A program made the position numbers and the translations under genes. The notes beneath the pieces were generated by a model. The model saw only the letters and a list, made by a program, of their open reading frames with translations. It did not search any database and was not told the DNA's origin. Below, one piece after another: positions 5,359 to 63,781 of a stretch of DNA of 64,000 nucleotides (position 1 is the stretch's first letter; each line of letters opens with the position of its first letter). Location of the stretch: positions 32,213-96,212 of the forward strand of contig DHHB01000082.1 in NCBI GenBank assembly GCA_002403075.1, read 5' to 3'. This DNA comes from a bacterium UBP1_UBA4783. GTDB taxonomy: Bacteria; Krumholzibacteriota; Krumholzibacteriia; Krumholzibacteriales; Krumholzibacteriaceae.

Positions 5359-5371
5359 GGGGCCGCGCGGC

Positions 5372-7103: not shown

Positions 7104-7116
7104 TGACGCGAGAGGT

Positions 7117-7191
7117 GGCCCCTTAGTCTAGTGGTTAGGACGCTTGGTTCTCAGCCAAGAATCAGGGGTTCGACTCCCCTAGGGGCTACCA
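7117..7191 (+). tRNA. tRNA-Glu (anticodon CUC).
   Basis: Manual fold: acceptor GGCCCCU/AGGGGCU with G1:U72, D-arm GUCUAGUGGUUAGGAC, anticodon loop UUCUCAG (CUC), T-arm GGGGUUCGACUCCCC, CCA. It resembles E. coli tRNA-Glu. Confidence 0.8.
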
Positions 7192-29506: not shown

Positions 29507-29617
29507 GTGCGTTCCGCCTTCGAAAGCCTCGAGGGCCGGGTGTGGGATGGGCGGGCGGGCTTATCCTTCTGAGCGCTTGCATTCGCTCCCCGGCGGGTAG
29601 TACTATCACATCGAACG

Positions 29618-29875
29618 ATGGGAGGCCACGGAGAAATGAACGGCAGCGCGAACGACGAGTTCGTCGAGCTCGAGAAGGTTCAGGGGGATTTCGAGGCGCA
29701 GGTTCTGAGAAGCCTCCTCGAATCCGAGGGGATCGACGTGATCGTGAAGGCCGGCCTCGTCCATACGGTTCATCCGCTGACCGTCGACGGCCTCGGCGAG
29801 GTTCGCGTGTGCGTGCGCGACGGGGACGTCCCCCGCGCGCGGGAGATTCTCGACGCGTTTCGGGAGCGCCGGTAG
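29618..29875 (+). CDS. Small DUF2007-like protein.
   Basis: 85-aa ORF with the pattern E..A..L.S.L...GI.....D.... Family assignment is tentative. Confidence 0.4.
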   Translation: MGGHGEMNGSANDEFVELEKVQGDFEAQVLRSLLESEGIDVIVKAGLVHTVHPLTVDGLGEVRVCVRDGDVPRAREILDAFRERR

Positions 29876-29877
29876 CG

Positions 29878-31214: not shown

Positions 31215-31331
31215 TGAGTTTTCCGCGCGGCGCTTTGTGCCGGCGGACGTCTCCGCCGTCCCACCCGGCGGCTCCCGAACAGGCCCGTTATGCGACATCG
31301 TACCCCCCCACCCGGTGCGAAGGAGTGTGCC

Positions 31332-46668: not shown

Positions 46669-49600
46669 ATTTCTTGAGCTTCGAATAGACGGTCGGTTTC
46701 GAGATGCCGAGGAGCGCGGCGGCCTTCGTCTTGTCGCCGATCTTCTCGACCACCTTGCTCACGATCATCCCTTCCACGCGCGGAAGGATCGGATCGGCGG
46801 CCGACAGCTCGGTGCGTTCGACGAGCTCCTCGATCGTTTGCTCGAGGGTCGCGCGCTGTTCGGCGCGGGCGATCTCGCGCCGTTTCGCGATGGCGTCCGG
46901 CAGATCCTCGGGCAGGATCGTCTCGCGCCGCGCCGCGATGATCGTCCGGTTGACGATGTTCTCGAGTTCCCGCACGTTCCCCGGCCAGTCGTAGGCGACG
47001 AGGCGGGCCATCGCCTCGGGAGAGATCTTCTTCACGGGCATGCCGTAGAGACGGCAGTAGACGGCGAGGAAATGGAGGGCGAGCGGCTCGATGTCCTCGG
47101 CCCGCTCGCGGAGATCGGGAATGCGGATGGGAAACACGTTGATGCGGTAGTAGAGATCCTCGCGGAATCTTCCCTCGCGGACGAGGGCGAGGAGATCCTT
47201 GTTGGTGGCGGTGATGATCCGCACGTTCGTCGAGATCAAGTGCGAGCCGCCGACGCGGTAGAAGGTCCGGTTCTCGAGCACGTGGAGGAGCTTCGGCTGG
47301 AGCGCGAGCGGCATATCGCCGATCTCGTTCAGGAAGATCGTTCCGCCGTTCGCCGACTCGAAATGGCCGATCCGCAGCTTGTGGGCGCCGGTGAACGCGC
47401 CCCGCTCGTGGCCGAAGAGCTCGCTCTCGAGGAGCTCGGCTGATATCGCCGCGCAGTTGAGCGCCACGAACGGCTTTTCCGCGCGGGGGCTGCGGCAATG
47501 GATCGTTCTCGCGACGAGGTCCTTGCCGGTGCCGTTCGATCCCGTGAGCAGCACCGTGGTGTCCATGTCCCTGATGCCGTCGAGAAGCCCGTACAGGTGC
47601 CTCATCGGGGCGGAGGAGCCGATCACGTCCGGGAACGCCGCGCGCTTGCCGGGCCGCGCGGGCGGGGCGTTCGCCTCGATGCGCGATCGCTCGAACCCCT
47701 CGATCCGATCGGCGAGGAGCGCGCGTTCGAGGGCGAGCGCCGCTTCCTGGCAGAAAGCGACGAGCAGACTATGGTCGCCGTCGGCCGTTCGTTCTCCCCC
47801 CCGCGCGGAGTCGAGGTACAGGAACGCCGTCGCGTCGCCGCCGACGCGCAGCGGCACGCACAGGATGCGCGGGCGTTCCGCGAGAAACTCGGGCGGCACC
47901 TTGCCTTCGGGGAGCGTCGAACGCGTCGTGTCGAGGGGGTATCCGAGCCGCACGGCGACGGCGAGCACGGCCGCGACGCGCCGGTCGGCGAGCGTCCCCG
48001 AAGCGGGGAAGTCGCCGCTCGCGGCGGCGATCCGGAAGGCGTCCTTGCCGTCGGCCTTGCGGATGAGCGCCGCGCGCTCCATGCCGGTGATGCGGAGCGC
48101 CGTATCGACGACGAGGTTTTCGATTTCGGCCGTCCCCCTCGCCGAGCGCACCATCGCCGCGAGGCGGCAGAGCGCGTGGAAGCGGTCGGTATCCGATACG
48201 ATTTCGCCGCGGCACAGCGGCGAGCGCTTTTCGACGCTCTCCCGGAGGCGGCGCACCGGAAGCGGCACGTGCTCGCTTTCGCCGACTGCGGAGAGCGAGC
48301 GGAGGAGGTACTCGCGGGCGAGCGGCTCGTTCCCCTCGGCGAGCGAGAGCGATCCGATCTCGGCGGCGACGCTCGCCGCCGCGTTCGTTCGGCCGAGGAG
48401 CGAGAGCTCGAGGCTCCCGCTCTCGAGCTTGAACCGTCCTTCCTCGACCCGTCCCTGCGAAATGAGTATCCGCCCTTCGAGGATCGTGAGGAGCACCGCC
48501 TCGAGGCGCGAACCGATCCGCTGGTTCAGGGCGCGCGCTTCGGCGAGATGCTTCGCCGCCTCGGGCGCGTCCCCCGAGGCGAGGCGCAGCTCGCCGAGCT
48601 TCCGCAGCACGACGGCGCGCTCGCGGATCGATTTCGTCCGATCGCAGAGGTCGAGGTCGCGCTCGTAGTACGCCGCCGCCTTCTCGCCGTTCCCCTGGAG
48701 AAACTGGATCTCGCCCATCGTGCCCCACACCTCGGCGAGGAGCTGCTGGTTGCCGATCGTCTCGGCGAGGTGCGCGGCCGTGGCGCAGCTGCGCTCCGCG
48801 TCGCGGTACTTCTCCGTCTCGAGATACACGAGGGCTTGATTGAGAAGCGCCGCGGCGAGCCCGGGGAGGTTCTCGTGGCGCTTCTTGATCTCCATGCTCT
48901 TCGCGAAGCATTCGAGCGCCTCGGCGTACGCGCCGAGAGAACGGTACACGAGGCCGAGGTTGTTGTACGTCGCGGCGACGCCGATCTCGTCGCTGCAGTC
49001 CTCGCGGAGAGCGAGACAGCGCTTGTAGCAGAGGATCGCGTCCTCGTACTTGCTGCGGTTCCAGTTGATCGTTCCCATGAGGTTGTACGACTGGGCGATC
49101 TCCGCAGGATCCCTCTTCTCGTCGAGGAGCCGGTGCACGAGAAGACAGTGCTCCCACGAACGGTCGAACGCTCCGAGGCGGTAGTGGATCCAGGCGATGT
49201 CGTTGTAGAGCTTCGCGCGTTCCTGCGAGAGGAGCTCGTCGCCGTGCATCTCGAGCGCTTTCTCGAGGAGCTCCTGCGCCGCGGGAAACTCCCCCCGTTT
49301 TTCGAGGATCTCGCTCTCGCGGCGCACCGCTTCGACGGCGAGGTTGCGGAAACGGGCCGTCTCGGGCTCGCGGTCGATCTCCTCGCGGCAGCGGCGGTAG
49401 AAGGATTCCGCCGCCGAGGTGTTCCCCGTCAGCGCACAATGGGCGCCGAGATCGAGGAGGAGGGCGTAGCGCGCGTCGGCTGGGAGCGCGAGATCGAGAC
49501 CCTCCTCGAAATAGCTCTCGTGAAAGCAGCGCAGCGCCGCGAGCCGCTTGCGCCGCATGAAATGCTGCAGGATCTCGCGGCCGCGCAGCGCCGCTTCGGC

Positions 49601-51289
49601 GCGCGCGCCGCTCCGCACGAGGTGGACGTAGGAGCAGATCGCCGGCACGCCGCGACGTTCGTCGAGGAGCCGCGCGATATTCCGGTGGATCGACTCGAGC
49701 CGCTCGGCGGGAAGCGCCTCGATCGCCGCGCGGGCGATCGAACGTCCCGCCACGCGGTACAGCATGGCGAGGGCGCCGTTCGAGAGCGGCGAGACCCCCG
49801 CGCGCGTACGCACGAGACCGCGGGCCTCGAGGCGCCGGAGCGCGTCGAAGACGCTCTGCTCCTCCGGGGCGTAGACGGCGAGAATGAAGGAAAGCGGCGC
49901 TTCGAAATCGAACGCCGAGAGGAACGCGAGCACGGAGCGCTCCTCTCCGCCGAGCGAGTCGAGGAAGAGCCGGGCGCCCGCAGCCGGCGCCGCGCCGTTT
50001 TCCTCGATCGCCGCGATGCGGTCGAGCCGCTCGAACGCGAACGAACCCGCCGCCGTCCCTCCGGAGGCGCTCTCCGGAGCGATGCGATCGAGCAGCCGGC
50101 GGCGTTCCGCCGCGGAGAGCGGCGGCAGGGCCACCTCCCGGACGTCGACGCCGCGCTTCCCGATCTCCTCGCGTATGCCGTCCGCGAGCCGGGAGCCGCC
50201 GTCTTCGCCCACCGCGGCGACGGTGAGACGGCAGCGCTCCGCCGCCTGGCACAGGTAATCGATCACGCAGCATTCGAGGAGCGGTTCGAGGGCGTGGTCG
50301 TCGACGAGGGCGAAGTCGGCGCCGTCGACCGCCTCCTTTTCGGCGACGTCTTGAAAGATCGATTGGTCGCCGGCGATCGAGCCGCGCCGGTATCCCCATT
50401 CGTCGACGAGGATACGCTCGAGGCGCTCGAGAAAATGAGTTTTCCCCTCGCCGTCCGCTCCCCTGAGCAGGATGAGCGCGCGTTCGTCGTCGCGGGCCTT
50501 GAGGGCGGTCTGCTTCACCGCTCGAAGCGCGGCGGCGGGAGGATGGACGTTGACGGTCCGCGCCGGGAAGATCCGGTCCGGAGACACCGCCGTCTCCGCG
50601 AATGCGGCGAGCGCCTCGATCGCCGCTCGGTAGTCGCGGCCCCCTGTTTCCGGACCGAGCGCCTTGAGGGCGTCGGCGACGCGCTTGGCGCGCTCCGCTT
50701 CGCCGGATTCGAAGTGGCGGGCCGCCGTCGAAAGGAGCTCGGCCGCGGCGCGAAGGTCGACGTACGGCGTCTCCGGCGCCGCGCCCTCCCGCGCCCCGGA
50801 GCGGATGATCGAGAGCACCGGCCCCGGAATGAGATAGGCCGTCGGCAGGACGCCGGGCGCGTCGTTCGCCATGTACATCGATTCGAGGGAGAGGTTCGAA
50901 AAGGCGCATCCGTCGGCGAGGCACGCGAGCACGTAGGAGAGAAGGGCGCGCGTGTGCGCGAGCGCGCGGGCCGGCTGCATGAGAGAAAGCGCCTTGGTGA
51001 GCGGCGCGATCTCGACCCGCGGGACGAGGAAGGTGACCGCTCCGTTCGCCTGCTGCAGCGAAAGCGTCGGCGACGCGATCGCGCCGTGCCGCGTGAACAG
51101 GCGATCCCGCATCCGTAGATCGTCGATCGAAACGGAAAGGTTCGCGGGGATTTCGAGAGAGAAGAAGAAATACTCCTTCTCGCTCAGGCTGTCGCTGACG
51201 GAGCATCCGTGCCACGGCGGAAATTCACCGAGCGTCGTGCGGACGATATAGCGAGAATCGAGCGGGATTCGAGCCTTTTCGTTGTTCAT
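46646..51289 (-). CDS. Giant (1547 aa) sigma54-dependent transcriptional activator: N-terminal ~250-aa unknown domain, STAND/AAA_16-type P-loop NTPase, long TPR array, GAF-like region, sigma54-interaction AAA+ domain, Fis-type HTH.
   Basis: Walker A GADGEGKT and multiple TPR repeats. Sigma54 AAA+ motifs GSNGTGKD, the GAFTGA signature (ELFGHERGAFTGA), FLNEIGDMPL and PGNVRELEN. C-terminal HTH AAALLGISKPTVYSKLKKYG. Confidence 0.8.
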   Translation of the reverse strand: MNNEKARIPLDSRYIVRTTLGEFPPWHGCSVSDSLSEKEYFFFSLEIPANLSVSIDDLRMRDRLFTRHGAIASPTLSLQQANGAVTFLVPRVEIAPLTKALSLMQPARALAHTRALLSYVLACLADGCAFSNLSLESMYMANDAPGVLPTAYLIPGPVLSIIRSGAREGAAPETPYVDLRAAAELLSTAARHFESGEAERAKRVADALKALGPETGGRDYRAAIEALAAFAETAVSPDRIFPARTVNVHPPAAALRAVKQTALKARDDERALILLRGADGEGKTHFLERLERILVDEWGYRRGSIAGDQSIFQDVAEKEAVDGADFALVDDHALEPLLECCVIDYLCQAAERCRLTVAAVGEDGGSRLADGIREEIGKRGVDVREVALPPLSAAERRRLLDRIAPESASGGTAAGSFAFERLDRIAAIEENGAAPAAGARLFLDSLGGEERSVLAFLSAFDFEAPLSFILAVYAPEEQSVFDALRRLEARGLVRTRAGVSPLSNGALAMLYRVAGRSIARAAIEALPAERLESIHRNIARLLDERRGVPAICSYVHLVRSGARAEAALRGREILQHFMRRKRLAALRCFHESYFEEGLDLALPADARYALLLDLGAHCALTGNTSAAESFYRRCREEIDREPETARFRNLAVEAVRRESEILEKRGEFPAAQELLEKALEMHGDELLSQERAKLYNDIAWIHYRLGAFDRSWEHCLLVHRLLDEKRDPAEIAQSYNLMGTINWNRSKYEDAILCYKRCLALREDCSDEIGVAATYNNLGLVYRSLGAYAEALECFAKSMEIKKRHENLPGLAAALLNQALVYLETEKYRDAERSCATAAHLAETIGNQQLLAEVWGTMGEIQFLQGNGEKAAAYYERDLDLCDRTKSIRERAVVLRKLGELRLASGDAPEAAKHLAEARALNQRIGSRLEAVLLTILEGRILISQGRVEEGRFKLESGSLELSLLGRTNAAASVAAEIGSLSLAEGNEPLAREYLLRSLSAVGESEHVPLPVRRLRESVEKRSPLCRGEIVSDTDRFHALCRLAAMVRSARGTAEIENLVVDTALRITGMERAALIRKADGKDAFRIAAASGDFPASGTLADRRVAAVLAVAVRLGYPLDTTRSTLPEGKVPPEFLAERPRILCVPLRVGGDATAFLYLDSARGGERTADGDHSLLVAFCQEAALALERALLADRIEGFERSRIEANAPPARPGKRAAFPDVIGSSAPMRHLYGLLDGIRDMDTTVLLTGSNGTGKDLVARTIHCRSPRAEKPFVALNCAAISAELLESELFGHERGAFTGAHKLRIGHFESANGGTIFLNEIGDMPLALQPKLLHVLENRTFYRVGGSHLISTNVRIITATNKDLLALVREGRFREDLYYRINVFPIRIPDLRERAEDIEPLALHFLAVYCRLYGMPVKKISPEAMARLVAYDWPGNVRELENIVNRTIIAARRETILPEDLPDAIAKRREIARAEQRATLEQTIEELVERTELSAADPILPRVEGMIVSKVVEKIGDKTKAAALLGISKPTVYSKLKKYGKTKNP

Positions 51290-51380: not shown

Positions 51381-51725
51381 TCAGGGGATATAGAGCAGGC
51401 GCCCGCAGCTCTCGCAGGTCTGGAGCTCGACGCGGTTCGCCGACGAGAAGAACGACGTCGGAAGCTTCACGAAACAGCCGAGGCACCGGCTGCCGGAGAC
51501 GGGCAGAATGGCCACCGTGTAATGCTCGGCGAGCTTTTCGTAGCGGTTGAGGAGCGCCTTCGGAACCGAGGAGGCGAGCTTCGCGCGCGCGTCGAGGAGG
51601 ACCGACAGTCCGGTGAGCTTGAATCCGAGACCCTCGAGCTCCTTCGACGTGGCCTTGTCCTTGACCTCCTTGATCATGATGTCGAGGTCCTGGAGCGCGA
51701 TGAGGAGCCGGTGCTCGTCTTTCAA
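51381..51725 (-). CDS. C4 zinc-ribbon domain protein (COG1579-like, short form).
   Basis: Coiled-coil N-terminus and CLGCFVKL...CESCGRLL. Confidence 0.5.
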   Translation of the reverse strand: MKDEHRLLIALQDLDIMIKEVKDKATSKELEGLGFKLTGLSVLLDARAKLASSVPKALLNRYEKLAEHYTVAILPVSGSRCLGCFVKLPTSFFSSANRVELQTCESCGRLLYIP

Positions 51726-52189
51726 TCGTCTTTCCCTTCGAAGATGCCGACGAGCGTCGAGAAATCGGCGGCCTCGTTGAGCGCCCTGAGCTTCGCCGGT
51801 TTCTGGATGAGCCCGATGAGCTCGCTGAGGATCGCGAGATAGGTTTCAGATCCCTTGTCCGACGGCGCGAGTATGAGGAAGAAGACGTTCGTCGGCTTGC
51901 CGTCGAGCGCCTCGAAATCGACTCCCGACGAGGAGCGCGCGAACAACACCGTAAGCTGCTTGATGGCGAGGGAGCGGCCGTGGGGAAACGCGACGCCGTT
52001 TCCGAGCCCCGTGCTGCCGAGGTTCTCGCGGTTCTTCAACATGTCGAGGATGAACCGTTCGTCCGAGATGCGTTTCTGGAGAGCGAGGTGATGTACCATC
52101 TCCGTGAGCGCGCTGATCTTCTTGCGCGACCGGAGATGAAATATGCAAAGATCCTCTTCGAAGAACGAAATCAGCTTGGAAGCTTCCAT
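51722..52189 (-). CDS. ptsN: PTS EIIA(Ntr)-type nitrogen regulatory protein.
   Basis: EIIA(Fru/Mtl/Ntr) fold with phosphorylatable His in GLGNGVAFPHGR. Length is 155 aa. Confidence 0.75.
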   Translation of the reverse strand: MEASKLISFFEEDLCIFHLRSRKKISALTEMVHHLALQKRISDERFILDMLKNRENLGSTGLGNGVAFPHGRSLAIKQLTVLFARSSSGVDFEALDGKPTNVFFLILAPSDKGSETYLAILSELIGLIQKPAKLRALNEAADFSTLVGIFEGKDD

Positions 52190-53458: not shown

Positions 53459-54568
53459 ATGAGGAAGCGGATCGAACGGGCGCTCAAACGCCGTTTCGCC
53501 CGGTGCGCCGCGCTTTTTCTCGACCGACGCCGGATCACCCCCGCGGAGCTCGAAAGGATCGAGATATCGCGCCTTCTCGTCATCCGCCAGCACAACCAGA
53601 TGGGGGATATGCTGCTCGCCGTGCCGGCGTTCCGGGGTCTTCGCCGCCGTTTCCCCGGGGCGCGGATATCGCTCGTCGCCGCTCCCGTCAACGCGGCGGC
53701 CGCGGCGCGGATCCCGTATATCGACGAGGTGCTGACGTACGCGAAACGGCGAAACCGGTGGAACCCGTTCGCGCTCCCGGCGTTCGTCGCGGGCCTTCGC
53801 AGCCGGCGCTTCGACGCGGTCATCGTGCTCAACACCGTGTCCTTCTCGATCACGAGCATGCTGCTCGCCGCGGCGAGCGGCGCGCGCGTCCGTCTCGGGT
53901 CGACGAGCCGGCCGTTCGGGCACGATCTTTCCGAGAGGTTCTATCATCTCGAGTTGCCGCTCCCTCCGCCGGAGGAGCTCGCCGCGATGCACGAAAGCCG
54001 GCACAACCTCTATCCGCTCGCACCGATCGGCGTCCGGGAGGACGACCTTCGATCGATCGTCGTTCCGACGGCGGAGGAGGAGCGGGACGCCGTTCGATTC
54101 GTCGCGGCGTCCGTCGGCGACGGGACGCCGTTCGTCGTTGTGCATCCGGGCGCGGGCAAGCGTGGGAATATCTGGCCTCCCGAGCGTTTCGCCGAGGTCG
54201 TCTCGGCGCTTCACGATCGCCGCGGCGCGGGAGCGATCGCCGTGCGCGGCCCGGTCGACGGCCCCGCCGTCGACGCCTTTCTCCGCTCGTGCAGGGTACG
54301 TCCGGCGGTCGTCTCGTCGCCCGGCATCGGATTCCTCGCGAGCCTCATGAAGCTCGCGTCATGCGTCCTCTGCAACGATACCGGGGTCATGCACGTCGCC
54401 GGCGCCGCGGGGGCGCGATGCGTCGCCGTGTTCGGGCCGACGGATCCGCGCCGCTGGAAGCCCCCGAACGACACGGTCGTCGCCGTGCGCGCCCGGGACG
54501 GAAGGGTCGAGTCAGTCGAAGCCGGCGAGGTTCTCGAGGCGGTCGAGCGCTTACTGGCTCTCCGATAG
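53459..54568 (+). CDS. Glycosyltransferase family 9 (LPS heptosyltransferase-like).
   Basis: GT9 pattern with C-terminal ...NDTGVMHVAGAAGARCVAVFGPTDPRRW. An AT-rich tract lies immediately upstream. Confidence 0.75.
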   Translation: MRKRIERALKRRFARCAALFLDRRRITPAELERIEISRLLVIRQHNQMGDMLLAVPAFRGLRRRFPGARISLVAAPVNAAAAARIPYIDEVLTYAKRRNRWNPFALPAFVAGLRSRRFDAVIVLNTVSFSITSMLLAAASGARVRLGSTSRPFGHDLSERFYHLELPLPPPEELAAMHESRHNLYPLAPIGVREDDLRSIVVPTAEEERDAVRFVAASVGDGTPFVVVHPGAGKRGNIWPPERFAEVVSALHDRRGAGAIAVRGPVDGPAVDAFLRSCRVRPAVVSSPGIGFLASLMKLASCVLCNDTGVMHVAGAAGARCVAVFGPTDPRRWKPPNDTVVAVRARDGRVESVEAGEVLEAVERLLALR

Positions 54569-56395
54569 GGGAACGAGGCGGATGGCGAGCGTGAGCGGCT
54601 CTCCGTCGGGCACGTTCACGCCGGCGGACCACGAACGGTATCCCGGCTTTTTCAGCTCCACGCGGTGCGGACCGGGCGCGAGAGGGACGGGCTGAGCGAG
54701 CGGGAGCTCGCCCCGGTACGCGCCGTCGACGAAGAGGCGGGCGCCGCGCTCGGATTTCACGACGAGCGATCCGACGATCTCGGCGAGCACGATGCGGCGG
54801 CGCGAGAGCTCGCCTGCGGCGACGCGCACCGTCTCCACGTAATCGCGGTATCCATCCCGCCGGACGACGATCTCGTGCGGTCCGGCCGGCAGCTCGAGCA
54901 TCGATATCCTTCCGGTCGCGGTCTGCGGTTCGCCGTCGACGATGATCGAGGCGGCGGGTTCTACCGAGACGTCGAGGAATCCCGTTTGCGCGCGCGGCGG
55001 GGGCGCCTCGCGCGAGGGGCGCGCATCAGCGGGGAGCGGCGCCGCGGCCGCCGGTTTTCCGCCGGAGGGGGCCGCGACGGGAAACGGGATGTCCACGCCG
55101 CGGTCGGCGTCGCGCTCGACGTCGCGCGCGGCGCCGTCCGCGGAATCGGCTGAAACGCCGGAAAGGGCCGAAGCGTCCGCCGCGGAGCCGGTCCCGATAT
55201 CCATGAGGGAATCGGCCGCGTACGTCCCTCGCGGCGTTCCGGCCTCGATGACCGCGCCGGCCGCGGTCTCGACCGGGACCGTCTCGCCTATCGGCGTCAT
55301 CGTGACGCCGGGCAGCGGCTCGCCGATCGAGGCCGGGATCGCCTCGCGTCGAGGCTGAGCCGGATCGGGGAAGCCCGCGCGGATCGATTGCGGCAGCGCG
55401 CCGAGGAAGCCCGTGTGCACGGCGGCGAGGCCGAGCACTGCGGCGGCTCCCGCGGCGATCGCCGCCGCGCGGACGGGGGAGCTCGCGCGGCGCTTTCCGG
55501 GGCGGCGCAGGACGCGGCGCGGGGCGGCGTCCTCTCCGCACGCGAGAAGGCGCAGCCGCGCGCGGGCGGAGGCGATCGTCTCGGGATCGAGCGCGGCCTC
55601 GATCGCGGAGGCCATCTCGGCGGCGTCCCGGAAGCGCTTCGCCGGATCGAGCTCGAGCGCCCTCATAACGACGGCGTCCGTATCGGGGCGCACGTCTCCT
55701 CTCAGGCGTTTCGGCCCCGCCGAGACGCCGTTCAGTATCTTCCGTATCACCGCCGCGTAGGTCTCTCCGAAAAAGGGCTGCGCGCCGGTGAGCGCTTCGT
55801 AGCAGATCGTGCCGAGAGAGAACAGATCGCTCCGGCCGTCGATCGCCTCGCCGGCCGCCTGCTCGGGAGACATGTAGAGCGGCGTGCCGAGCAGCGTGGA
55901 GGCCAGCGTTTGCTGCGCTTCGGGACGGTGGAGCTTCGCGAGGCCGAAGTCCGTTATGACGACCCGTCCGTCGCGTCCGATCATGACGTTCGCGGGCTTG
56001 ATGTCGCGATGGACGACGCCGCGCCGGTGGGCGTGGTCGAGCCCGAGGCAGATCTCGCGGGCGACGAGCAGCGCGAGATCGTCTCCGAGGACCGGTCTCG
56101 CGGCAAGAACCTCCTTGAGACTCGGCCCGTCGACGTACTCCATGACGATGTAGTGGCCGTCGTCGTCTCGTCCGAAATCGATGATGCGCACGATGTTCGC
56201 GTGGTCGAGCCGCGCTGCGGCCTTCGCCTCGGTCGCGAACCGCTCGGCGAAGCCGGGCTCGGCGGCGAGGTGGGCGTGCAGACGCTTGACGACGACGGGT
56301 CGGTCGAGGGAGACCTGCACGGCCTTGAAGAGCGCGGCCGTGCCGCCCGTCGCGAGCGCGCGTTCGATCCGGTACGTTTCGTCGATCTTATTCAT
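54551..56395 (-). CDS. Ser/Thr protein kinase with a TM segment and C-terminal PEGA-like beta-domains.
   Basis: VHRDIKPANV, DFG and SPE motifs. Ends with ...GPHEIVVRRDGYRDY and ...GPHRVELKKPGYRSW repeats. The start at MNKIDE overlaps the phosphatase stop (ATGA). Confidence 0.8.
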   Translation of the reverse strand: MNKIDETYRIERALATGGTAALFKAVQVSLDRPVVVKRLHAHLAAEPGFAERFATEAKAAARLDHANIVRIIDFGRDDDGHYIVMEYVDGPSLKEVLAARPVLGDDLALLVAREICLGLDHAHRRGVVHRDIKPANVMIGRDGRVVITDFGLAKLHRPEAQQTLASTLLGTPLYMSPEQAAGEAIDGRSDLFSLGTICYEALTGAQPFFGETYAAVIRKILNGVSAGPKRLRGDVRPDTDAVVMRALELDPAKRFRDAAEMASAIEAALDPETIASARARLRLLACGEDAAPRRVLRRPGKRRASSPVRAAAIAAGAAAVLGLAAVHTGFLGALPQSIRAGFPDPAQPRREAIPASIGEPLPGVTMTPIGETVPVETAAGAVIEAGTPRGTYAADSLMDIGTGSAADASALSGVSADSADGAARDVERDADRGVDIPFPVAAPSGGKPAAAAPLPADARPSREAPPPRAQTGFLDVSVEPAASIIVDGEPQTATGRISMLELPAGPHEIVVRRDGYRDYVETVRVAAGELSRRRIVLAEIVGSLVVKSERGARLFVDGAYRGELPLAQPVPLAPGPHRVELKKPGYRSWSAGVNVPDGEPLTLAIRLVPLSESQ

Positions 56396-57120
56396 CGCGC
56401 CGTCGCGAGCCGCGCCGCGAGCGATTCCGGCAGGCCCGCGCTCCGTATCTTTTCCTGCGCGCCCCGGACGTCGTACGGGATGCGCCTGATGACGATGGTG
56501 CCCTTGTGCTCGTCGAGCAGAGCGAAGCTCGCCGCGGCGACGCCGTCCCGCGGCTGTCCGACGCTTCCCACGTTGACGAGATATCGCGATCCGGGAGCGA
56601 CCGCGGCGAACGGAGAACGCAGGACGCGCGACCCCCGCGCGTCGTCGCGCTCGATGATGCCGGGCACGTGGGTATGTCCGATGAAGACGAAACGTTCCGT
56701 CGTTCCCCCGAGGATCGCGTTCGCCTGGTTGAGCGTATAGACGTATTCCCAGCCCATCGGCGCCGTCGGCGAGGCGTGCGCGAAAACGCAATCGCCGTGG
56801 CGGCGGATCGTGTCGTACTCTCCGAGGAGCTCGAGGCTCGACAGATCGATCGCGCGGCATGTCCACAGGATCGCCCGCTCGGCCGCCTCGCCGAACGCGT
56901 CGGTGTCGATGAGCCCGGCCGCCGCGGCGTCGTGGTTGCCGGCGATCCGGATGGCGGCCCGCTCCTGCACGAGCGCGACGCACTCGTTCGGATTGGCTCC
57001 GTACCCGACGACGTCGCCGAGCGAGACGACGACGTCCGGGCGGAGCCGTTCCGCCTCCTCGAGGACCCGCTCGAGGGCCTCGACGTTTCCGTGCACGTCC
57101 GAGAATACGAGGTATCTCAT
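56392..57120 (-). CDS. Metallophosphoesterase (calcineurin-like); likely the kinase's partner protein phosphatase.
   Basis: FSDVHGN, LGDVVGYG and AGNHD motifs. Length is 242 aa. It is translationally coupled to the kinase. Confidence 0.75.
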   Translation of the reverse strand: MRYLVFSDVHGNVEALERVLEEAERLRPDVVVSLGDVVGYGANPNECVALVQERAAIRIAGNHDAAAAGLIDTDAFGEAAERAILWTCRAIDLSSLELLGEYDTIRRHGDCVFAHASPTAPMGWEYVYTLNQANAILGGTTERFVFIGHTHVPGIIERDDARGSRVLRSPFAAVAPGSRYLVNVGSVGQPRDGVAAASFALLDEHKGTIVIRRIPYDVRGAQEKIRSAGLPESLAARLATAR

Positions 57121-57122
57121 GG

Positions 57123-58460
57123 CTATTCCTTGAAGACGAACTCTTCGGCGCCGATCGCGATGAGATCGTCGCGCTCGAGGATCTTCTCGTCGGTTTCCTC
57201 GCCGTTCACCCTCACGCGGGCGCCTCCGCGCCTCATGAGCACCCAGTCGTCTCCCGCCCGCACGATCTCGATCCGCACGCGCGGGGCGAAGAGCCCGCCG
57301 ACGCGTATATCCGCGTCTCTCGCCCGCCCGATCACGGTCCGTTCCTTCGCGAGCGGGTACTCCTCTTGCGCCGTTTTCCGGAAAAGCCGCGGATCGGGCG
57401 GCGGATCCTCTCCGGCGCCCGATCCGGGACGGGGAGGCCCGGCCGCGCGGAACTGCGGAACGACGATCGTCTGGTCGAGCTCGCCGGCGGATGCGCCCTC
57501 GAGCGTCGGAATTTGAAACAGGATGTCGTACTTGCCGACCGATATGACGTCTCCGTCCGCGAGGCGGGCCGAGGTGACGGGGGCCCCGTTCAGCATCGTG
57601 CCGTTCCTGCTCGCGAGATCCCTCACGACGTATCCGTCGCCGCTCGCGGCGACGGCGGCGTGCGAGCGGGAGACGCTCAGATTGTCGATCACGACGTCGT
57701 TGTCGGGAAGGCGTCCGATGGTGACTTCCTGCCCGGAGAACGGGTACGTCCGCAGCGGTCTTCCCTTGAGCCGCACGACGAGCCTGGGCGGCTGGCTCAG
57801 GAAGAACGACGCGATCGATCCCGCGTAGCCGGCGGGGACCGCCCGCACGTCCTCCGCGTGGGTGACGGAGAGGTCGGTGAAGAGGCAGAGCTCGAGCGGA
57901 TGCTTCGCCGAAATCGTGTAGACGGCGACGAGAAAATCCTCGCGGGCGGCCGCGCGTCCGGCCGCCTCGAAGCGGCCGCGGCGGCAGAAGACGGGGGCGC
58001 CGGCCTGGCAGCGGAGCACGATGAGGTCCGCGCGGTCGCGCGCGGTGAGGACGGCGCTCGCGCGGTCCGTTTCCGTGCGGTCGAGGAGCTCGTCGAGATC
58101 GACGAGCGTCGAAGCGACGCGCAGCTCGGGTTTCTTCTGTCCCCATACGAGGAGCGAATGGAAGAGGGCGAGGTCCGTGCGGTACGCGACGATCTGCGGG
58201 AACTGCATGCGTCGCAGGCGCGAGAAGAACTCGCGCAACGGCACGGCGCGCACCCGGTCGCCGTCGTGAGCCCCGGCCCAGTAGATCTGTCCCTCGTTGA
58301 GGAACAGGAAATACTGGATGTCCCCGCTCGAGACCTCGATCACGACCGGCGCCGCGCGGCTCGCCGCGAGCTGCCCGCGGCAGAGTGCGTCGAAATCCTC
58401 CGGGTCGAGATCGCGCGGCTCGAGCAGGACCGATCCGTATGGAATTTGCAGCCGAACCAT
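57123..58460 (-). CDS. Protein with an N-terminal unknown domain and two C-terminal FHA domains.
   Basis: Two FHA cores (VTIGRLPDNDVVIDNLSVSRSHAAV...NGTMLNGAPV ; TVIGRARDADIRV...RVNGEE). Confidence 0.7.
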   Translation of the reverse strand: MVRLQIPYGSVLLEPRDLDPEDFDALCRGQLAASRAAPVVIEVSSGDIQYFLFLNEGQIYWAGAHDGDRVRAVPLREFFSRLRRMQFPQIVAYRTDLALFHSLLVWGQKKPELRVASTLVDLDELLDRTETDRASAVLTARDRADLIVLRCQAGAPVFCRRGRFEAAGRAAAREDFLVAVYTISAKHPLELCLFTDLSVTHAEDVRAVPAGYAGSIASFFLSQPPRLVVRLKGRPLRTYPFSGQEVTIGRLPDNDVVIDNLSVSRSHAAVAASGDGYVVRDLASRNGTMLNGAPVTSARLADGDVISVGKYDILFQIPTLEGASAGELDQTIVVPQFRAAGPPRPGSGAGEDPPPDPRLFRKTAQEEYPLAKERTVIGRARDADIRVGGLFAPRVRIEIVRAGDDWVLMRRGGARVRVNGEETDEKILERDDLIAIGAEEFVFKE

Positions 58461-58485
58461 CGTGCGGTCTCCCAGCCGGCGGGCG

Positions 58486-59682
58486 CTACTTCACCTCTGC
58501 GTGAAAGCGCTTGAGGTTGCGCTTCGCCTTCTCGTTCGCCGGATCGATCTCGAGGGCCCGTTTCCAGGCGCCGATCGCGTCCTCGATCCGCTTCATCTTG
58601 TAGTAGGCGTTGCCGAGGTTCGTGTAGGCGGAGGAGTTGTTCGCGCTCCGGCCGATCGCCTCGTTGTACATCTCGATCGCTTCGTCGTACGAGCCGAGAC
58701 GGTAGAATACGTAGCCGAGGTTGTTGTACGCGGCCGCGAGCTCCGGTTCGATTTCGATCGCCTTCCGGAAGGCCTCGGTCGCCCGTTTCGCGTCGTTCGT
58801 CTCCGTGTAGGCGAGGCCGAGGTTGTTGTACGCCTCGGTCATCGCCGGTTCGATCTCGACCGCCTTGCGGAACAGCTCGAGAGCCTTTTCGTACTGGCCG
58901 TTGTGGTACGCCATGACGCCGGCGTTGTTGTGCCGCCGCGCTTCCGCGGTTCGGCGCTTGCGGCTCTCCTCCTCGATGCTCCGCTTCTGGTTCTCGACGA
59001 CCTGCATGACCCCCTCGTGGCTGCGGGTCAGCTCGTCGACGAGCCGCCGGTTCTCGGCGAGGCCCGTCTCGAGCCCCGAGGCGTTCGTCGATATGGCGTC
59101 CTTCCACGAGGCGATCTCTCCGCGGAACGCGGCGACGCTCTCCGCGCTCGATTCGATCTTCCTCTCGATCTCCTCGCTCCGCGCGTCGAGCGTGAGGGAA
59201 AGGGCCTCGATCGCCGTGTCCCGCTCCCCGGCCGTCGAACGAACGAGCTCTCGCAGCTCCTCGAATCCGCGCGAGACGCCCGTCGAGAGCTCCTCGAGGC
59301 GCGCGGCGTGCTTCGTTTCAAGCTCCGCGAACAGGTCGCGGATCGTATCCGCGGACCCGTCCTGCGCCTGCGGCCGTTCCGACAGGACGCGGTCGAGGCG
59401 ACACTCGTTCGCCGCGTCGTCGTGGAACCGGCAGAGATCTCCGAGACACTCGACGCGCCCGCGGTAGGCCTTGGCGATGAAACGCACGGCCGTTCCGGAT
59501 TCGGCGGCTTCGTCGAGCGGCGTCTCGTCGGGCGGCTTCGACTCCGGATTGATGAAGAGCAGATCCTTCGTCGCTTCCGGCGCCGGACCCTCGCGGGGGG
59601 GCTCGACGTCGTCGAGCTCGCGAACGAGAACGTTCGCGTCCTCGAGCATGCATGTCTGCGTGACGAGCGGGCAGATCTTCAT
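58486..59682 (-). CDS. Cys-cluster/coiled-coil/TPR protein.
   Basis: Start MKICPLVTQTC after RBS AAAGGAGA. N-terminal C..C...C..C pattern, a central coiled-coil and four or more C-terminal TPR repeats. Confidence 0.65.
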   Translation of the reverse strand: MKICPLVTQTCMLEDANVLVRELDDVEPPREGPAPEATKDLLFINPESKPPDETPLDEAAESGTAVRFIAKAYRGRVECLGDLCRFHDDAANECRLDRVLSERPQAQDGSADTIRDLFAELETKHAARLEELSTGVSRGFEELRELVRSTAGERDTAIEALSLTLDARSEEIERKIESSAESVAAFRGEIASWKDAISTNASGLETGLAENRRLVDELTRSHEGVMQVVENQKRSIEEESRKRRTAEARRHNNAGVMAYHNGQYEKALELFRKAVEIEPAMTEAYNNLGLAYTETNDAKRATEAFRKAIEIEPELAAAYNNLGYVFYRLGSYDEAIEMYNEAIGRSANNSSAYTNLGNAYYKMKRIEDAIGAWKRALEIDPANEKAKRNLKRFHAEVK

Positions 59683-59705
59683 GATCGTTCTCCTTTGCGT
59701 GTCGT

Positions 59706-62700
59706 TCAAATCGATTCCGTTTTTTCGATCGTGTATGCCGGCTCCCCGCACGATTCGGCGAGGAACGCGGCGTAGTTGCGCGTCGCGCGCTCGCGACTGT
59801 CGTCCGTTCCGTCGAGAGCCGCGGCCGCCGCGAATATCGCCGCGGCGCGGCCGCTGTCCCCCGCGCGCTCGCGCGCGGTTCCCTCGAGGTAGAGCGCGGC
59901 CCGTTTCGCCCCGGGAGAGATCGCGTCGTCCCCGGCCGCGCCCGCGAGGGCGGCGCACGCGAGGAACGGGCGATCCATGGCGAGGTAGACCCGGCCGAGG
60001 AGCATCGCACGCTCGGTTCTCGGCGGCGCGGCGTTCGTGATCGCCTCGAGCGCCTCGGCGCCTCTGCCCCGCTCGAGGAGCAGCTCGACGAGAAGCTCGA
60101 CGCCGTCCGCGGACTTTCCCGGTTCGGCCGCGCGGGAGGAGAGAGAGGCGATCGCGCGGTCCCCCCACGCGAGATACGATCGTTCGATGCGCTCGTAGAC
60201 GGCAGCCCGGTCCGGCGCCGCGGCGAGCGCCTCGTCGAATATGCGGGAGGCGCGTTCGGAGCGTCCCTCCCCGCGCAGGATCTCGGCGAGCTCGATCGCG
60301 AGATCGAGCGAGTCGGGTCCGCCGAGAACGTTTCTGCCGCGCTCGATGAAGCGCTCCGCCTCGTCGATCCGGCCCGCCGCCGCGAGACGCTGCGCGCCGA
60401 GCGAGAAATGCTCCCGTCGCGGCGCGCGGCCGGCGAGCGCGGCGAGGCGCGGAACGATATCGTCCACGAGGGCGGCGCCGGGATCGGCGACGGCGCCGAT
60501 AGCGGCGAACGCCTCGTCGAACCGGCCGGCGGCGACGAGGCAGTCGGCGGCGAGAAGCGATTTCGCCGCGGCGAGGCCGTCCGGCCACGGGCGCCGGTCG
60601 AGCACGGCGACGATCTCCCCCGCGAGCGAGGCGTCTCGTTCGAGCGACGCGCGAAGGCGCGCGAGGGCTTTCTCGTCCTCCCCGGCGCGCGCCATGAGCG
60701 CGCCGTAGCGGAGAAGAAAGCCGCCGTCCTCGCCGTGCGCGGCGAGGAACGGCTCGACGACCGCCGCGAGCGCCGCCGGATCGCCGGTTTCGTCGGCGAG
60801 GAGACGCGAGAGGGCCTCGCGCGAGCGGGCCGGATCGCCGGCGTCGAGATGCATCCGGGCGAGCATCGCGTTCGCGTCGATCTGGGACGGAGAGTCGGCG
60901 ACGATGCCCTGGAGGACGTCCTTCACGGCCGGGCCGGCGCCCGCGTCGCGCTGGAGCAGCGAGGCGAGGAGCGCCGCAGTCTCCGCGTACCGCTCTTGGC
61001 GCGCGAGTATGCGCGCGTGGAGAAGTCCGAGATCCGCGTCTCCGGGCGAGGTCGATCTCGCCCGCTCGAGCGACGCGGACAGGTCGGCGAGCGATTCGAC
61101 GGAGCCGCTCTCGGCGGACGCGAAGAGGCGGAGCGCCTCCGCGCGGCGTCCCTCGAGCCAGAGGATCTCGCCGAGGAACGCCGCGATTCTCCACGGCTCC
61201 ACGGCGAGCGGCAGGATCAATTCGAGCGTGCGCTTCACGGGACCGCTGTGGTCCGTGGAGAGATCGAGGCATCGCCTGAACGAATCGACGGCCTCGCGTT
61301 CGCGCCCGAGCACGGCGAGCGACCGGCCGAGCAGGAGGTGCGAGCGCGGTTCGCGCGGATCCCGCTCGACGATCGCGCGGAGCTCGCTTTCGATTCCTCG
61401 GGCGTCGGGCCGGTCGGCCCCGAGGGCGGCCTCGAGGCAGCGGAGCGCCTCTTCGAACGCCCCTTCCGCCGAGGCGATGCGCGCGCCGTGGAGATGGAGC
61501 CCAGCGGCCGCCTGCGGCGGCAGGGACGCGAGAGCGCGCTTCAGGATCTCCTTCGCGAGGCCGGCGCGGCGCATCGAGAGCGCCGTCGAGAGCATCGCGT
61601 CCCAGATCGCCGCGTTTCCCGGATCGCGCTCGACGAGCTTGTCGAAGCGCTGCATGATGTCGCGTATCTGGCCGGGATCGAGCTCGAGGGTGCGGCCGAG
61701 ATGCCGCGCCGCCTCGACGAACGATTCCATATCGAGATGGAGGTGATAAAGAGCGAGGTGCAGCATCGCGCTGCCGCCGAGGCGCGCGGCGGCGCGTCCG
61801 TATATGTCGATGAGGCTCCGGCGGAGCCCCTCGTCGAACATCATGAGCTGGTCGAACTCGAACACCGCCCGTTCGATCTCGCCGCGATAGAGGTGGCCGG
61901 TGGCGCGAACGATCCTGAGCGGCTGAGAAAGCTCCTCGTCGGCGGCCATAGCGTCGAGCAGGTCGGCGACGAGACGCCAGCGCCCGTCGTCGTCAGCGGC
62001 GAGATCGCGGAGCTCGGCGGCGAGCGACTCGTGATCCTCCCGGTTCTCGCGGCAGAACGCGGCGACGTGCGGAAGCGCCTCCCCGATATTCCCGCTGCGG
62101 AGCGCGATGTCGACCGCGGCGACGACGCCGGGGAGCGTGACGCCGCACCGGTTCATGATCTCTCCGGCGAGCCGCAAAAGCTCGTCCTCCGGGAGTCCGC
62201 CGGTCCTGCGGAGAAGTCCGAGCGCCTCCTCGGCGCTTTCGCGGTCCCCGAGGCGCGCGCGCAGCTCGGCGAGCAGCATGACGAGCTTCGGATCGCGCTC
62301 GCGCGGCGGCGCGACGAGCGCCGAGACGGCCTCGACGATGCCGGGGATCGCGGTCGCGTCCGCGTCCGCGGCGAGCCGCGCGGCGCGCACGGCGTCATCG
62401 ACGCGCCCTCCCTTCGCGTAGAGTCGCGCGAGCAGCGTTTCTCCCGGGGCGCTCGGCGCCGTCGATTCGATCCGCTCGAGCCACGCGACGATCGCCTCCG
62501 CGCGGGCGGGATCGCGCTCGAGCGATTCCTCGAGCGCCCCGACCGCGTCCTTCATGCGGCCGAGGGACGCGGCGGCTTCGGCGTATGCGAAGGCGACCCC
62601 GCCGAGCGAGAAGAGATCCGCCGGCAGGATGGTGAGCCGCGAAACCGTCCGGCGGCAGCGTTCGAGCCGGTCGGCGGGAGGATCGCCGCCGGCCGCCGGA

Positions 62701-63569
62701 GGCTCGGTGTCCAGGTATTCGCGCAGCGCGGACGTCCCCTCGTCGACGCGTTCCGCGCGGACGAGCGCTTCGCCCGCGAGGAGCCTGCCGTTCGGGAGGG
62801 AGGGAAGAACGCCCTCGATCGCCGCGAGTATCCGGTCGACCGGGGCGGCCGGCCGTTCCATGCACTGGAAAAAGCGCGCCTCGGCCTTGTCCGGATGTCC
62901 GAGGCGAAGCGACGCGAGTCCGAGGGAGAACTTGACCGCGGCGCTTCCCGGCAGCTCGGCGTCGAGCCGGACGAGCGCCTCTCCGATGGGGCGCTCATCG
63001 CCGGAGAGGGTCTCGAATGCCGCGCACAGCATCTCCGCGGATTTCTCGTACTGCTTCGTTTCGCGATAGAGGATCCCGAGGAGAAGGGCGTTCTCGCCGT
63101 AGAGCGCGGACTGTTCCTGACCCTCGTCGGCGAGATTGCGCGCCCGCGTTTCGCACCGTTTCACGAGCTCGCTCGAAAAGGATTCGGGCGCCGTGTTCAC
63201 GAGATCGGCGATCGCCTCGAGGTCGCGGCTTCGCAGATGCGCGTCCACGAGAAAGGCGCCGATAAGCGTGCTCTTCGAGTGGGCGAACGCGCTCCGCGCG
63301 TAATCCATGATGTCGTCGCGCCGGGAGCCGTGGCGCCGGTGCGCGTTCTTGAGGAGGTTCGCCGCCTGCGGATAGTCCGAGAGGTCGAGGGAGGCCTGAA
63401 TCGCCTCCATCGCGAGATCGTAGTCGCCCGGCCATTTTTCGAGCGCCTCGAGCGCGTGCTGGCGCGCCTTGGCGAGGTCGCCCCGCTCGCGGTCCTGCAC
63501 TATCCTTTTCTGTGCCTTCTCCTGCGTGAGAAAGATGGATCCCGAAACCACTTCGCTGATCTTCGCCAT
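59706..63569 (-). CDS. Giant (~1287 aa) all-TPR repeat protein; first gene of the kinase/phosphatase/FHA operon.
   Basis: Continuous TPR-like helical repeats. The start is placed at MAKISEVV after GGAG. Confidence 0.65.
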   Translation of the reverse strand: MAKISEVVSGSIFLTQEKAQKRIVQDRERGDLAKARQHALEALEKWPGDYDLAMEAIQASLDLSDYPQAANLLKNAHRRHGSRRDDIMDYARSAFAHSKSTLIGAFLVDAHLRSRDLEAIADLVNTAPESFSSELVKRCETRARNLADEGQEQSALYGENALLLGILYRETKQYEKSAEMLCAAFETLSGDERPIGEALVRLDAELPGSAAVKFSLGLASLRLGHPDKAEARFFQCMERPAAPVDRILAAIEGVLPSLPNGRLLAGEALVRAERVDEGTSALREYLDTEPPAAGGDPPADRLERCRRTVSRLTILPADLFSLGGVAFAYAEAAASLGRMKDAVGALEESLERDPARAEAIVAWLERIESTAPSAPGETLLARLYAKGGRVDDAVRAARLAADADATAIPGIVEAVSALVAPPRERDPKLVMLLAELRARLGDRESAEEALGLLRRTGGLPEDELLRLAGEIMNRCGVTLPGVVAAVDIALRSGNIGEALPHVAAFCRENREDHESLAAELRDLAADDDGRWRLVADLLDAMAADEELSQPLRIVRATGHLYRGEIERAVFEFDQLMMFDEGLRRSLIDIYGRAAARLGGSAMLHLALYHLHLDMESFVEAARHLGRTLELDPGQIRDIMQRFDKLVERDPGNAAIWDAMLSTALSMRRAGLAKEILKRALASLPPQAAAGLHLHGARIASAEGAFEEALRCLEAALGADRPDARGIESELRAIVERDPREPRSHLLLGRSLAVLGREREAVDSFRRCLDLSTDHSGPVKRTLELILPLAVEPWRIAAFLGEILWLEGRRAEALRLFASAESGSVESLADLSASLERARSTSPGDADLGLLHARILARQERYAETAALLASLLQRDAGAGPAVKDVLQGIVADSPSQIDANAMLARMHLDAGDPARSREALSRLLADETGDPAALAAVVEPFLAAHGEDGGFLLRYGALMARAGEDEKALARLRASLERDASLAGEIVAVLDRRPWPDGLAAAKSLLAADCLVAAGRFDEAFAAIGAVADPGAALVDDIVPRLAALAGRAPRREHFSLGAQRLAAAGRIDEAERFIERGRNVLGGPDSLDLAIELAEILRGEGRSERASRIFDEALAAAPDRAAVYERIERSYLAWGDRAIASLSSRAAEPGKSADGVELLVELLLERGRGAEALEAITNAAPPRTERAMLLGRVYLAMDRPFLACAALAGAAGDDAISPGAKRAALYLEGTARERAGDSGRAAAIFAAAAALDGTDDSRERATRNYAAFLAESCGEPAYTIEKTESI

Positions 63570-63781
63570 AACGACTCCGGCTTGGGTTGAGGTTACGCCC
63601 GAGCTCTGCGAATAACGTACCATTCGGCCGGCGCGCCCCGAGCTTCTTTAATCGTTGAAATTTCGGGGGGTTAGATGTAAAGTATTCTCGCAGGGGCGGC
63701 GTAAGCCCATGATGCCGTTGCAATTTGCGACGACCGGGCACCCGTGCCGCCATGCCGCGGCGGCGCTTCGGAGGGCGAACC

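Follow-up and report, generated by a model that had tools for sequence, protein, structure and literature searches.

A PEGA-domain Ser/Thr kinase, a metallophosphoesterase and an FHA adaptor encoded by a conserved gene trio in Krumholzibacteriota

Introduction

Gene triads for a Ser/Thr kinase, a phosphatase and an FHA protein are among the few eukaryote-like bacterial modules with an understood logic, and they are known mostly from Actinobacteria, Firmicutes and those Proteobacteria that bear a type VI secretion system (T6SS). A well-known actinobacterial example is the cluster FhaA-FhaB-PstP-(RodA-PbpA)-PknA-PknB. According to passages in PMC8546545, in the PknG/OdhI system a TPR scaffold acts with the kinase and its FHA substrate. 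Here, a locus of this general kind is described from a stretch of 64 kb of chromosomal DNA (the window; contig DHHB01000082.1 of the Krumholzibacteriota bacterium UBP1_UBA4783, about 68% GC). Five consecutive minus-strand genes, A to E, encode two TPR proteins (A and B), a protein with FHA domains (C), a metallophosphoesterase (D) and a membrane-bound Ser/Thr kinase (E). A literature search on Krumholzibacteriota kinases, PEGA kinases and the metallophosphoesterase/FHA/Hanks combination found no description of this cassette. We favour, with a little better than even confidence, the view that genes C, D and E are its functional core and operate as a receptor Ser/Thr-kinase switch.

Results

Conservation of the C-D-E trio

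One genome per species was scanned, which yielded 80 loci, and the five proteins plus four neighbours were located in them by tblastn. Homologues of C carry the name Candidatus Krumholzibacteriota, and some of the Krumholzibacteriota loci are labelled Latescibacteria. Statements on synteny refer to about 70 Krumholzibacteriota genomes, for loci that extend far enough.

In all Krumholzibacteriota loci examined, C, D and E are contiguous, with 2 to 37 nucleotides between C and D (and a single outlier of 92) and a D-E spacing of -4 to +28 nucleotides. In the window, the TGA stop codon of D and the ATG start codon of E overlap as ATGA, which is seen directly in the sequence (GCGATGAAT). Both the overlap and the tight coupling of kinase, phosphoesterase and FHA genes had been proposed in an earlier interpretation made from the letters alone (the sequence-only reading), and both are borne out. 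Around the trio the gene order is almost invariable: the divergent genes queD/C/E, then A and B, then C, D and E, followed by the convergent genes for GT9 and RsgA, and by those for EIIA, a Zn-ribbon protein and a TPR-GAF-sigma-54 activator. The order A-B/C-D-E holds down to 31% identity in C. Each of the five proteins has full-length homologues in many genomes, so A to E are real genes and not chance open reading frames of GC-rich DNA.

The receptor kinase

Protein E is a Hanks-type kinase (Pfam Pkinase PF00069, 156.3 bits against a cut-off of 31.7), with the kinase domain formed by residues 8–255. Lys37, Glu57, the HRDIKPAN motif (residues 129–136, HRD being 129–131), the DFG motif (residues 149–151), activation-loop Thr163 and the SPE motif are conserved in 51 orthologues; the kinase, claimed earlier to have intact HRD and DFG motifs, does not look catalytically dead. 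The Gly-rich loop (residues 15–25, window positions 56395–56330) is atypical, reading A-T-G-G-T-A-A instead of G-x-G-x-x-G, with the central glycine kept. This variant is conserved in the orthologues and is a signature of the family, and E is probably functional with it.

A single hydrophobic trans-membrane helix (residues 308–331) follows the Arg/Lys-rich sequence RRVLRRPGKRR, which places the carboxy-terminal PEGA domains outside the cytoplasm, as the sequence-only reading had it. They are connected to the helix by an Ala/Pro-rich linker and match the PEGA model (PF08308) in two stretches with 60.9 bits, against a cut-off of 20.8. A Pfam PEGA stretch spans residues 542–609, CarboxypepD_reg is matched by residues 492–537, and the motifs PAGPHEI (503) and APGPHRV (573) are present. 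The PEGA region is conserved in the orthologues. The Stk1/PknB model of PASTA kinases (NF033483) reaches 304 bits of the required 450 and covers the kinase domain only; the sensor repeats are PEGA, not PASTA.

The adaptor protein

C has full-length homologues at 27–100% identity. The protein starts with a conserved domain of 225 residues (the N-domain), which the sequence-only reading overlooked. Its AlphaFold2 model has a predicted local distance difference test score (pLDDT) of 90 and a predicted template modelling score of 0.88. The N-domain belongs to no Pfam family, Foldseek returns hits with E-values of at least 5e-3 and TM-scores of at most 0.18, and a profile search of PDB sequences is empty. 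The PATAN domain (DUF4388, PF14332) was considered and rejected, with 15.7 bits against a cut-off of 25 (E-value 0.016) over 33 of the 122 profile positions; just two of 19 family members match this model, below the cut-off.

When an N-domain profile is compared with 1.84 billion representative proteins, 158 clusters are found, 108 of them at an E-value of 1e-10 or lower. The family sequences are mostly about 330 or about 440 amino acids long. In a Pfam scan of a sample, one or two FHA domains come immediately after the N-domain in eight of ten members, and two of the sampled proteins (P0401 and P0402) have no Pfam match. One protein of 674 residues (P0356) unites four elements in a single chain: Zn-ribbon, Pkinase domain, N-domain and FHA domain. 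A gene for a multihaem cytochrome is located upstream of its gene (5118–7142 of locus L088), and the protein is a Rosetta-stone link between kinase and N-domain. On a contig with 37% GC from an unrelated organism (L090), a PP2C gene and a gene for another FHA protein are flanked by two N-domain-FHA paralogues, which adjoin a gene for a kinase-TPR fusion; the PP2C phosphatase gene comes immediately after the adaptor gene, as D does in the window. The cluster (L090, 4857–12511) also holds a small Metallophos_2 protein and looks like a richer form of the same signalling theme. The fusion protein and the L090 cluster thus tie the N-domain-FHA adaptor to kinases independently of Krumholzibacteriota.

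The first FHA domain (FHA1) is canonical, with 83.6 bits for Pfam FHA (PF00498) against a cut-off of 20.7, and Gly249, Arg250, Ser264, Arg265, His267 and Asn286 are invariant in all 74 homologues. The second (FHA2), scanned alone, falls just short of the same model (20.4 bits) and just passes Yop-YscD_cpl (33.5 bits against 33.2). The Ser-x-x-His and Asn ligands of phospho-threonine are replaced, and FHA2 is not assigned to the FHA family, while its predicted fold is a beta-sandwich. FHA2 thus has the FHA fold but is probably not a reader of phospho-threonine. Of the two phospho-threonine readers of the "double-FHA" protein that had been described, the first stands and the second probably does not.

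Residues 320–353, between the two FHA domains, have pLDDT values below 50 and are predicted to be disordered. This linker contains the motif D-Q-T331-[VMI]-[IV]-[IFV]-P, in which Thr331 is kept in 73 of 74 homologues, distant ones of Thermoanaerobaculia and Aminicenantes without a nearby kinase among them, and is followed by hydrophobic residues at +1 to +3. Judged by its sequence, the motif is a candidate phospho-acceptor site and FHA ligand; a threonine with an aliphatic residue at +3 is what many FHA domains generally prefer.

The TPR proteins

Protein A consists of TPR repeats throughout (TPR_19, 88 bits, and further TPR models). In the clades with 44% or more identity in C, orthologues of A contain 1284–1313 residues and are 31–68% identical; in a deep clade, A has only about 800 residues and is 22–25% identical across the amino-terminal 300–450. 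Protein B, with orthologues at 66 loci, has four TPR stretches at residues 245–390, approximately (TPR_1, 120 bits). Together A and B amount to 1685 amino acids, in line with the more than 1600 reported previously. At the amino-terminus of B, Cys4, Cys79, Cys84 and Cys94 are present in 50–55 of the 66 orthologues; the rest mostly have gaps there, probably from miscalled starts, and Cys11 is not conserved. These four cysteines probably form a putative zinc- or metal-binding module. When the amino-terminal 244 residues of B are compared with 5.8 billion proteins, only Krumholzibacteriota orthologues are found, all annotated merely as TPR proteins, which provides no functional lead. A hydrophobicity check of A, B, C and D reveals no trans-membrane segment or signal peptide in any of the four.

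The way in which A and B are attached to the trio differs between clades. In the clade of the window (12 loci, C identity of 58% or more), B and C are separated by a gene-free gap of 24–64 nucleotides (176 in one case). Almost all remaining loci (about 50, with C at most about 52% identical) have 420–2600 nucleotides there, and in all but one of them this stretch includes a gene for a cold-shock-domain protein on the opposite strand. Examples of the cold-shock gene are found at 9442–9648 of locus L001 and 9410–9670 of locus L003. A tblastn search of the whole window finds no CspA-like gene. Because this gene separates B from C outside the window's clade, the ancestral state is two units, A-B and C-D-E, and the five-gene string is a derived, lineage-specific fusion that followed loss of the cold-shock gene. 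The five-gene operon of the sequence-only reading is plausible for the window, where no gap exceeds 25 nucleotides, but it is not the arrangement of most clades.

In the window, the 25-nucleotide B-C spacer contains no terminator-like structure, and read-through from B into C appears plausible from the sequence. At another locus of the same clade (L017), the 46-nucleotide B-C spacer, upstream of the start of C at position 1133, contains a GC-rich hairpin and then a T-run (GCCCGCGCGGGTTTT); co-transcription of B and C may therefore not be universal even in the fused clade.

These data bear on a wider explanation, in which all five genes form one system and A and B are scaffolds or phospho-targets under the control of E and D, with the FHA protein as their reader. 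We regard this as possible but rather doubtful. Wherever the sequence reaches far enough, A-B is directly upstream of C-D-E; nine of the 12 loci in the window's clade have only 24–30 nucleotides between B and C, and in the window itself C is preceded by a Shine-Dalgarno-like site. A TPR protein recurs near the module outside the phylum, in the kinase-TPR fusion of L090, and PknG/OdhI (PMC8546545) offers a published case of a TPR scaffold that acts with such proteins. Opposed to this are the cold-shock gene and wide gap that part B from C in most clades and the terminator-like hairpin of L017. Protein A is fast-evolving, its length varying from about 800 to about 1300 residues, and TPR proteins are plentiful in this genome, at least three further ones being encoded within the window. 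Moreover, unrelated housekeeping neighbours (the queuosine genes queD/C/E and the genes for GT9, RsgA, EIIA and the sigma-54 activator) are just as syntenic, so conserved adjacency says little about membership of A and B. They are best described as conserved neighbours of unproven relevance, and as candidate scaffolds or substrates.

The phosphoesterase

Protein D is a member of the calcineurin-like superfamily, matching Metallophos_2 (PF12850) with 66.7 bits against a cut-off of 27 and Metallophos (PF00149) with 54.8 against 21.5. No PP2C/PPM domain is found in any of the five proteins by Pfam scan, so the phosphatase was rightly called calcineurin-like rather than PP2C, at the superfamily level. 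The motifs SD-H-N, GDvVGYG, GNHD, His115, GHTH and GQPRD are invariant or almost invariant across 67 orthologues, and Asp8, His10, Asp36, Asn62, His63, His115, His149 and His151 are invariant in the 21 orthologues that were aligned. Conservation of these metal ligands and of the kinase motifs argues that D and E are under selection as active enzymes.

Within the superfamily, D falls into a subfamily that is uncharacterised. The best PDB match is entry 3RQZ, which aligns end-to-end with an E-value of 5.5e-46 for the single sequence and 9e-62 for the profile. This structural-genomics metallophosphoesterase, which we take to be from Sphaerobacter thermophilus, has metal-binding motifs that match those of D; it has no reported function and permits no functional transfer. 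Weaker relatives are two archaeal hypothetical proteins, SapH (3QFM, presumably an Ap4A/ATP hydrolase), the Ser/Thr phosphatase of phage lambda (1G5B), YfcE and a putative Ap4A hydrolase (2QJC). The lambda phosphatase aligns over residues 5–78 of D only, with an E-value similar to those of the nucleotide hydrolases. Membership of the PPP family of Ser/Thr phosphatases (PrpA/PrpB, PRK11439) was rejected, D reaching 28.4 bits of the required 326 and its second motif, GDVVGYG, being without Asp-Arg. A homologue search gave 6803 matches; the best 120 of the 6803 are all orthologues and reveal nothing about gene context beyond the phylum.

From its gene context, we infer that D would be a protein phosphatase for the substrates of the kinase, and a non-orthologous replacement of PP2C. 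Alternatively, D could be a nucleotide phosphodiesterase, acting on Ap4A/ATP or a cyclic nucleotide and coupling a nucleotide signal to the kinase, with E and C being dephosphorylated by an enzyme encoded elsewhere. The models that D passes are generic (Metallophos_2 and Metallophos), the protein-phosphatase models are far under their cut-offs, YfcE phosphodiesterase and ApaH models are matched weakly, and SapH and 2QJC are among the structural relatives. However, gene D is always flanked by the FHA gene and the kinase gene, with overlapping stop and start codons in most genomes, and a PP2C gene has the equivalent position beside an N-domain-FHA gene in L090. Besides, the lambda phosphatase is matched as well as the nucleotide hydrolases are, and orthologues of D are filed by JGI under an ApaH/PP2A-type phosphatase COG. 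A nucleotide hydrolase is considered unlikely, and a phosphatase for the kinase's substrates remains the preferred role for D.

Output of the cassette

The sequence-only reading compared the locus to post-translational control modules of the PpkA/PppA/Fha type, and suggested that related genomes might reveal a T6SS, gliding or polysaccharide effector. No secretion or motility genes are present within 10 kb on either side in the approximately 70 genomes, nor anywhere in the window; its remark that none were in view is correct, and the comparison is not upheld. A controller of a secretion or motility machine encoded elsewhere (T6SS, type III secretion, gliding or type IV pili) is very improbable. 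FHA1 has weak, sub-threshold matches to TagH, GltG and YscD-type models, and PATAN domains, which the N-domain resembles below threshold, interact in Synechocystis with the motor of type IV pili, according to 10.1101/2021.06.11.447907. But TagH/Fha1 (TIGR03354) scores 53.2 bits against a cut-off of 120.25 and GltG 41 against 650, the DUF4388 match is restricted as described above, and the cassette contains no PP2C.

An anti-phage kinase (PD-T4-6 or MADS-like) in a defence island can be dismissed, since only the generic catalytic domain of E matches (306 bits for PADLOC PD-T4-6, 213 for mad6 and 162 for NCBIfam MAD6, the last short of the 460 required), PADLOC matches none of A, B, C and D, and the position in the core genome, fixed phylum-wide among housekeeping genes, is the opposite of how defence islands behave.

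At the syntenic loci, no neighbouring gene nominates an output process, and defence genes are also not linked. A gene for a 1547-residue protein with TPR, GAF, sigma-54 AAA+ activator and HTH_8 domains (46646–51289, minus strand) is located downstream of a gene for a protein like EIIA(Ntr) of the phosphotransferase system (51722–52189). This activator gene is syntenic with the cassette phylum-wide, and Ser/Thr signalling could conceivably have a transcriptional output through it.

Gene structure and neighbouring genes

The coordinates of the genes and their domains are collected in Table 1. The layout of five tightly spaced minus-strand genes, with gaps of 23 (A-B), 25 (B-C) and 2 nucleotides (C-D), is as reported before.

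Table 1. Coordinates in the window of the five genes, of the domains and motifs of their products and of the upstream intergenic region.
Feature	Position	Strand	Description
Gene A	59706-63569	minus	1287 amino acids; cytoplasmic all-TPR protein
Gene B	58486-59682	minus	398 amino acids; Cys4 / coiled-coil / four carboxy-terminal TPRs
Gene C	57123-58460	minus	445 amino acids; N-domain / FHA1 / disordered linker / degenerate FHA2
Gene D	56392-57120	minus	242 amino acids; metallophosphoesterase, putative cognate phosphatase
Gene E	54551-56395	minus	614 amino acids; receptor Ser/Thr kinase
B Cys4 module (residues 1-94)	59401-59682	minus	MKICP...C79-x4-C84-x9-C94; putative
C N-domain (residues 1-225)	57786-58460	minus	uncharacterised alpha/beta domain
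C FHA1 (residues 238-315)	57516-57749	minus	canonical phospho-threonine reader
C linker motif (residues 329-335)	57456-57476	minus	D-Q-T331-[VMI]-[IV]-[IFV]-P
C FHA2 (residues ~365-445)	57126-57368	minus	degenerate FHA-fold domain
E two PEGA domains (residues ~470-610)	54566-54988	minus	extracytoplasmic; presumed sensor
A-queD divergent intergenic region	63570-63781 (~210 nucleotides)		likely promoter region for A

A Shine-Dalgarno-like purine run precedes all five start codons; for A, GGAG is located 8 nucleotides before the ATG, and for B, AAAGGAGAA is located 5' of the ATG. An alternative ATG for A at position 63623 gains no support from the start points of the homologues. The third-position GC content is 0.86–0.87 for A and C, the only two frames returned whole by the frame screen. 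The queD gene begins at position 63782 on the plus strand and is also divergent from A in relatives. The sole sigma-70-like match in a scan of 10 kb falls in the A-queD intergenic region, on the plus strand. In this region, the promoter and terminator counts of the scan are not above those of shuffled sequence, and the promoter consensus used may not be that of the phylum.

The 3' end of E overlaps the convergent gene for a heptosyltransferase-like GT9 glycosyltransferase by 18 nucleotides (54551–54568), which leaves no space for terminators between these convergent genes. Comparable overlaps of 23–29 nucleotides are present in the distant relatives L001 and L003.

About 10 kb away, a second Hanks kinase, of 541 residues and fused to TPRs, is encoded at 42831–44456 (minus strand), with genes for a 318-residue TPR protein (44488–45444, minus) and a 275-residue protein without Pfam match (45619–46446, minus) upstream of it; these may constitute another kinase/TPR module. 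Further off, a plus-strand gene (35585–42751) encodes 2388 residues with a matrixin-like peptidase, Big_5, TIG, several beta-propellers and a carboxy-terminal FlgD_ig/CHU_C sorting domain of the type IX secretion kind, which suggests a type IX secretion substrate in an organism of the FCB group. Also on the plus strand are a gene for a tricorn-protease-like protein of 1121 residues (31290–34655; PD40, Tricorn_C1, PDZ and S41 domains) and, preceding it, one for a 487-residue protein with a D12-class N6-adenine methyltransferase domain (29542–31005).

Discussion

The C-D-E switch that we propose would operate as follows. E, a single-pass membrane kinase, is presumed to sense an envelope cue with its pair of periplasm-facing PEGA domains. 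Upon activation, it would autophosphorylate, with the conserved activation-loop threonine as the likely site, and FHA1 of C would dock onto a phospho-threonine. E might then phosphorylate Thr331 in the disordered linker of C, making it a ligand for FHA1, which would bind it in cis or in trans in a GarA/OdhI-like manner, and the range of partners open to the N-domain or FHA2 would change as a result. D would reset the system by dephosphorylation, filling the slot that PP2C has in other lineages. A and B would have joined the trio only in the window's clade, upon loss of the cold-shock gene.

Several observations weigh against this proposal. The entire neighbourhood of 25 kb is syntenic, which weakens guilt-by-association even for the tight trio. 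D passes no curated protein-phosphatase model, its nearest solved relative is uncharacterised, and its more distant ones include SapH alongside the lambda phosphatase. The hydrophobic residues after Thr331 could mark a structural, peptide-binding or docking motif instead of a phosphorylation site. In Thermoanaerobaculia, Aminicenantes and two other genomes, neither a kinase nor a phosphatase is encoded near the C homologues. Distant homologues of C, in Thermoanaerobaculia, Aminicenantes and others, have no conserved partner, their neighbours being unrelated from genome to genome. Since most homologues examined outside the phylum are without an adjacent kinase, the adaptor needs no dedicated neighbouring one.

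A bolder form of the proposal treats the N-domain plus FHA as an undescribed kinase-adaptor supradomain of several phyla, with a GarA-like Thr331 switch, which in Krumholzibacteriota links the envelope-sensing PEGA kinase to a phylum-specific cytoplasmic scaffold of A and B, the ApaH-like D having displaced PP2C. As a whole this is speculative, and we consider it improbable. For the C-D-E switch itself the signalling logic is familiar, and the unfamiliar parts are the orphan N-domain with its nearly constant FHA partner, the use of a metallophosphoesterase where a phosphatase is expected, and PEGA domains as the sensor. The known kinase/phosphatase/FHA modules are thereby joined by one that is a fixed part of the core genome in an uncultured phylum of the FCB group. 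If the Thr331 switch and the phosphatase role of D are true, C would represent a new family of FHA adaptors and D a new class of cognate phosphatase, and there would be a first functional handle on PEGA domains. Current understanding is not overturned by any of these readings.

Comparison with known systems

With the T6SS regulators PpkA/PppA/Fha1 (TagE/TagG/TagH), the cassette shares the logic of a membrane Hanks kinase, an opposing phosphatase and an FHA protein. It differs in that D belongs to another superfamily than their phosphatase, and in the lack of T6SS genes nearby.

The cassette resembles the actinobacterial Fha-Pst-Pkn cluster in that both are phylum-wide core-genome loci which contain one or more FHA adaptors, a phosphatase and a receptor Hanks kinase that crosses the membrane once and has its sensor repeats outside the cytoplasm. 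FhaA, like C, combines an amino-terminal domain of its own kind and a long disordered linker with an FHA domain. In the Krumholzibacteriota cassette, however, the sensor repeats are PEGA instead of PASTA, the phosphatase is of the Metallophos_2 type instead of PP2C and cell-wall synthesis genes are absent, while C has an N-domain unrelated to any Pfam family and an extra, degenerate FHA domain.

When C is compared to GarA/OdhI, the best NCBIfam match of FHA1 is OdhI (NF041660), with 71.7 bits, far below the cut-off of 200, and over the FHA region only; as the architecture differs from that of a small protein with an amino-terminal ETTS phospho-motif, C was not assigned to this family. Both have a conserved threonine in a disordered segment adjoining a canonical FHA domain, which suggests a phospho-dependent intra-molecular switch. 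The candidate threonine of C is located carboxy-terminal to FHA1, not amino-terminal, and C is three times larger, with two extra domains. In comparison with the TPR-bearing kinase PknG, E is membrane-bound and carries PEGA domains, and the TPR proteins A and B are products of separate genes.

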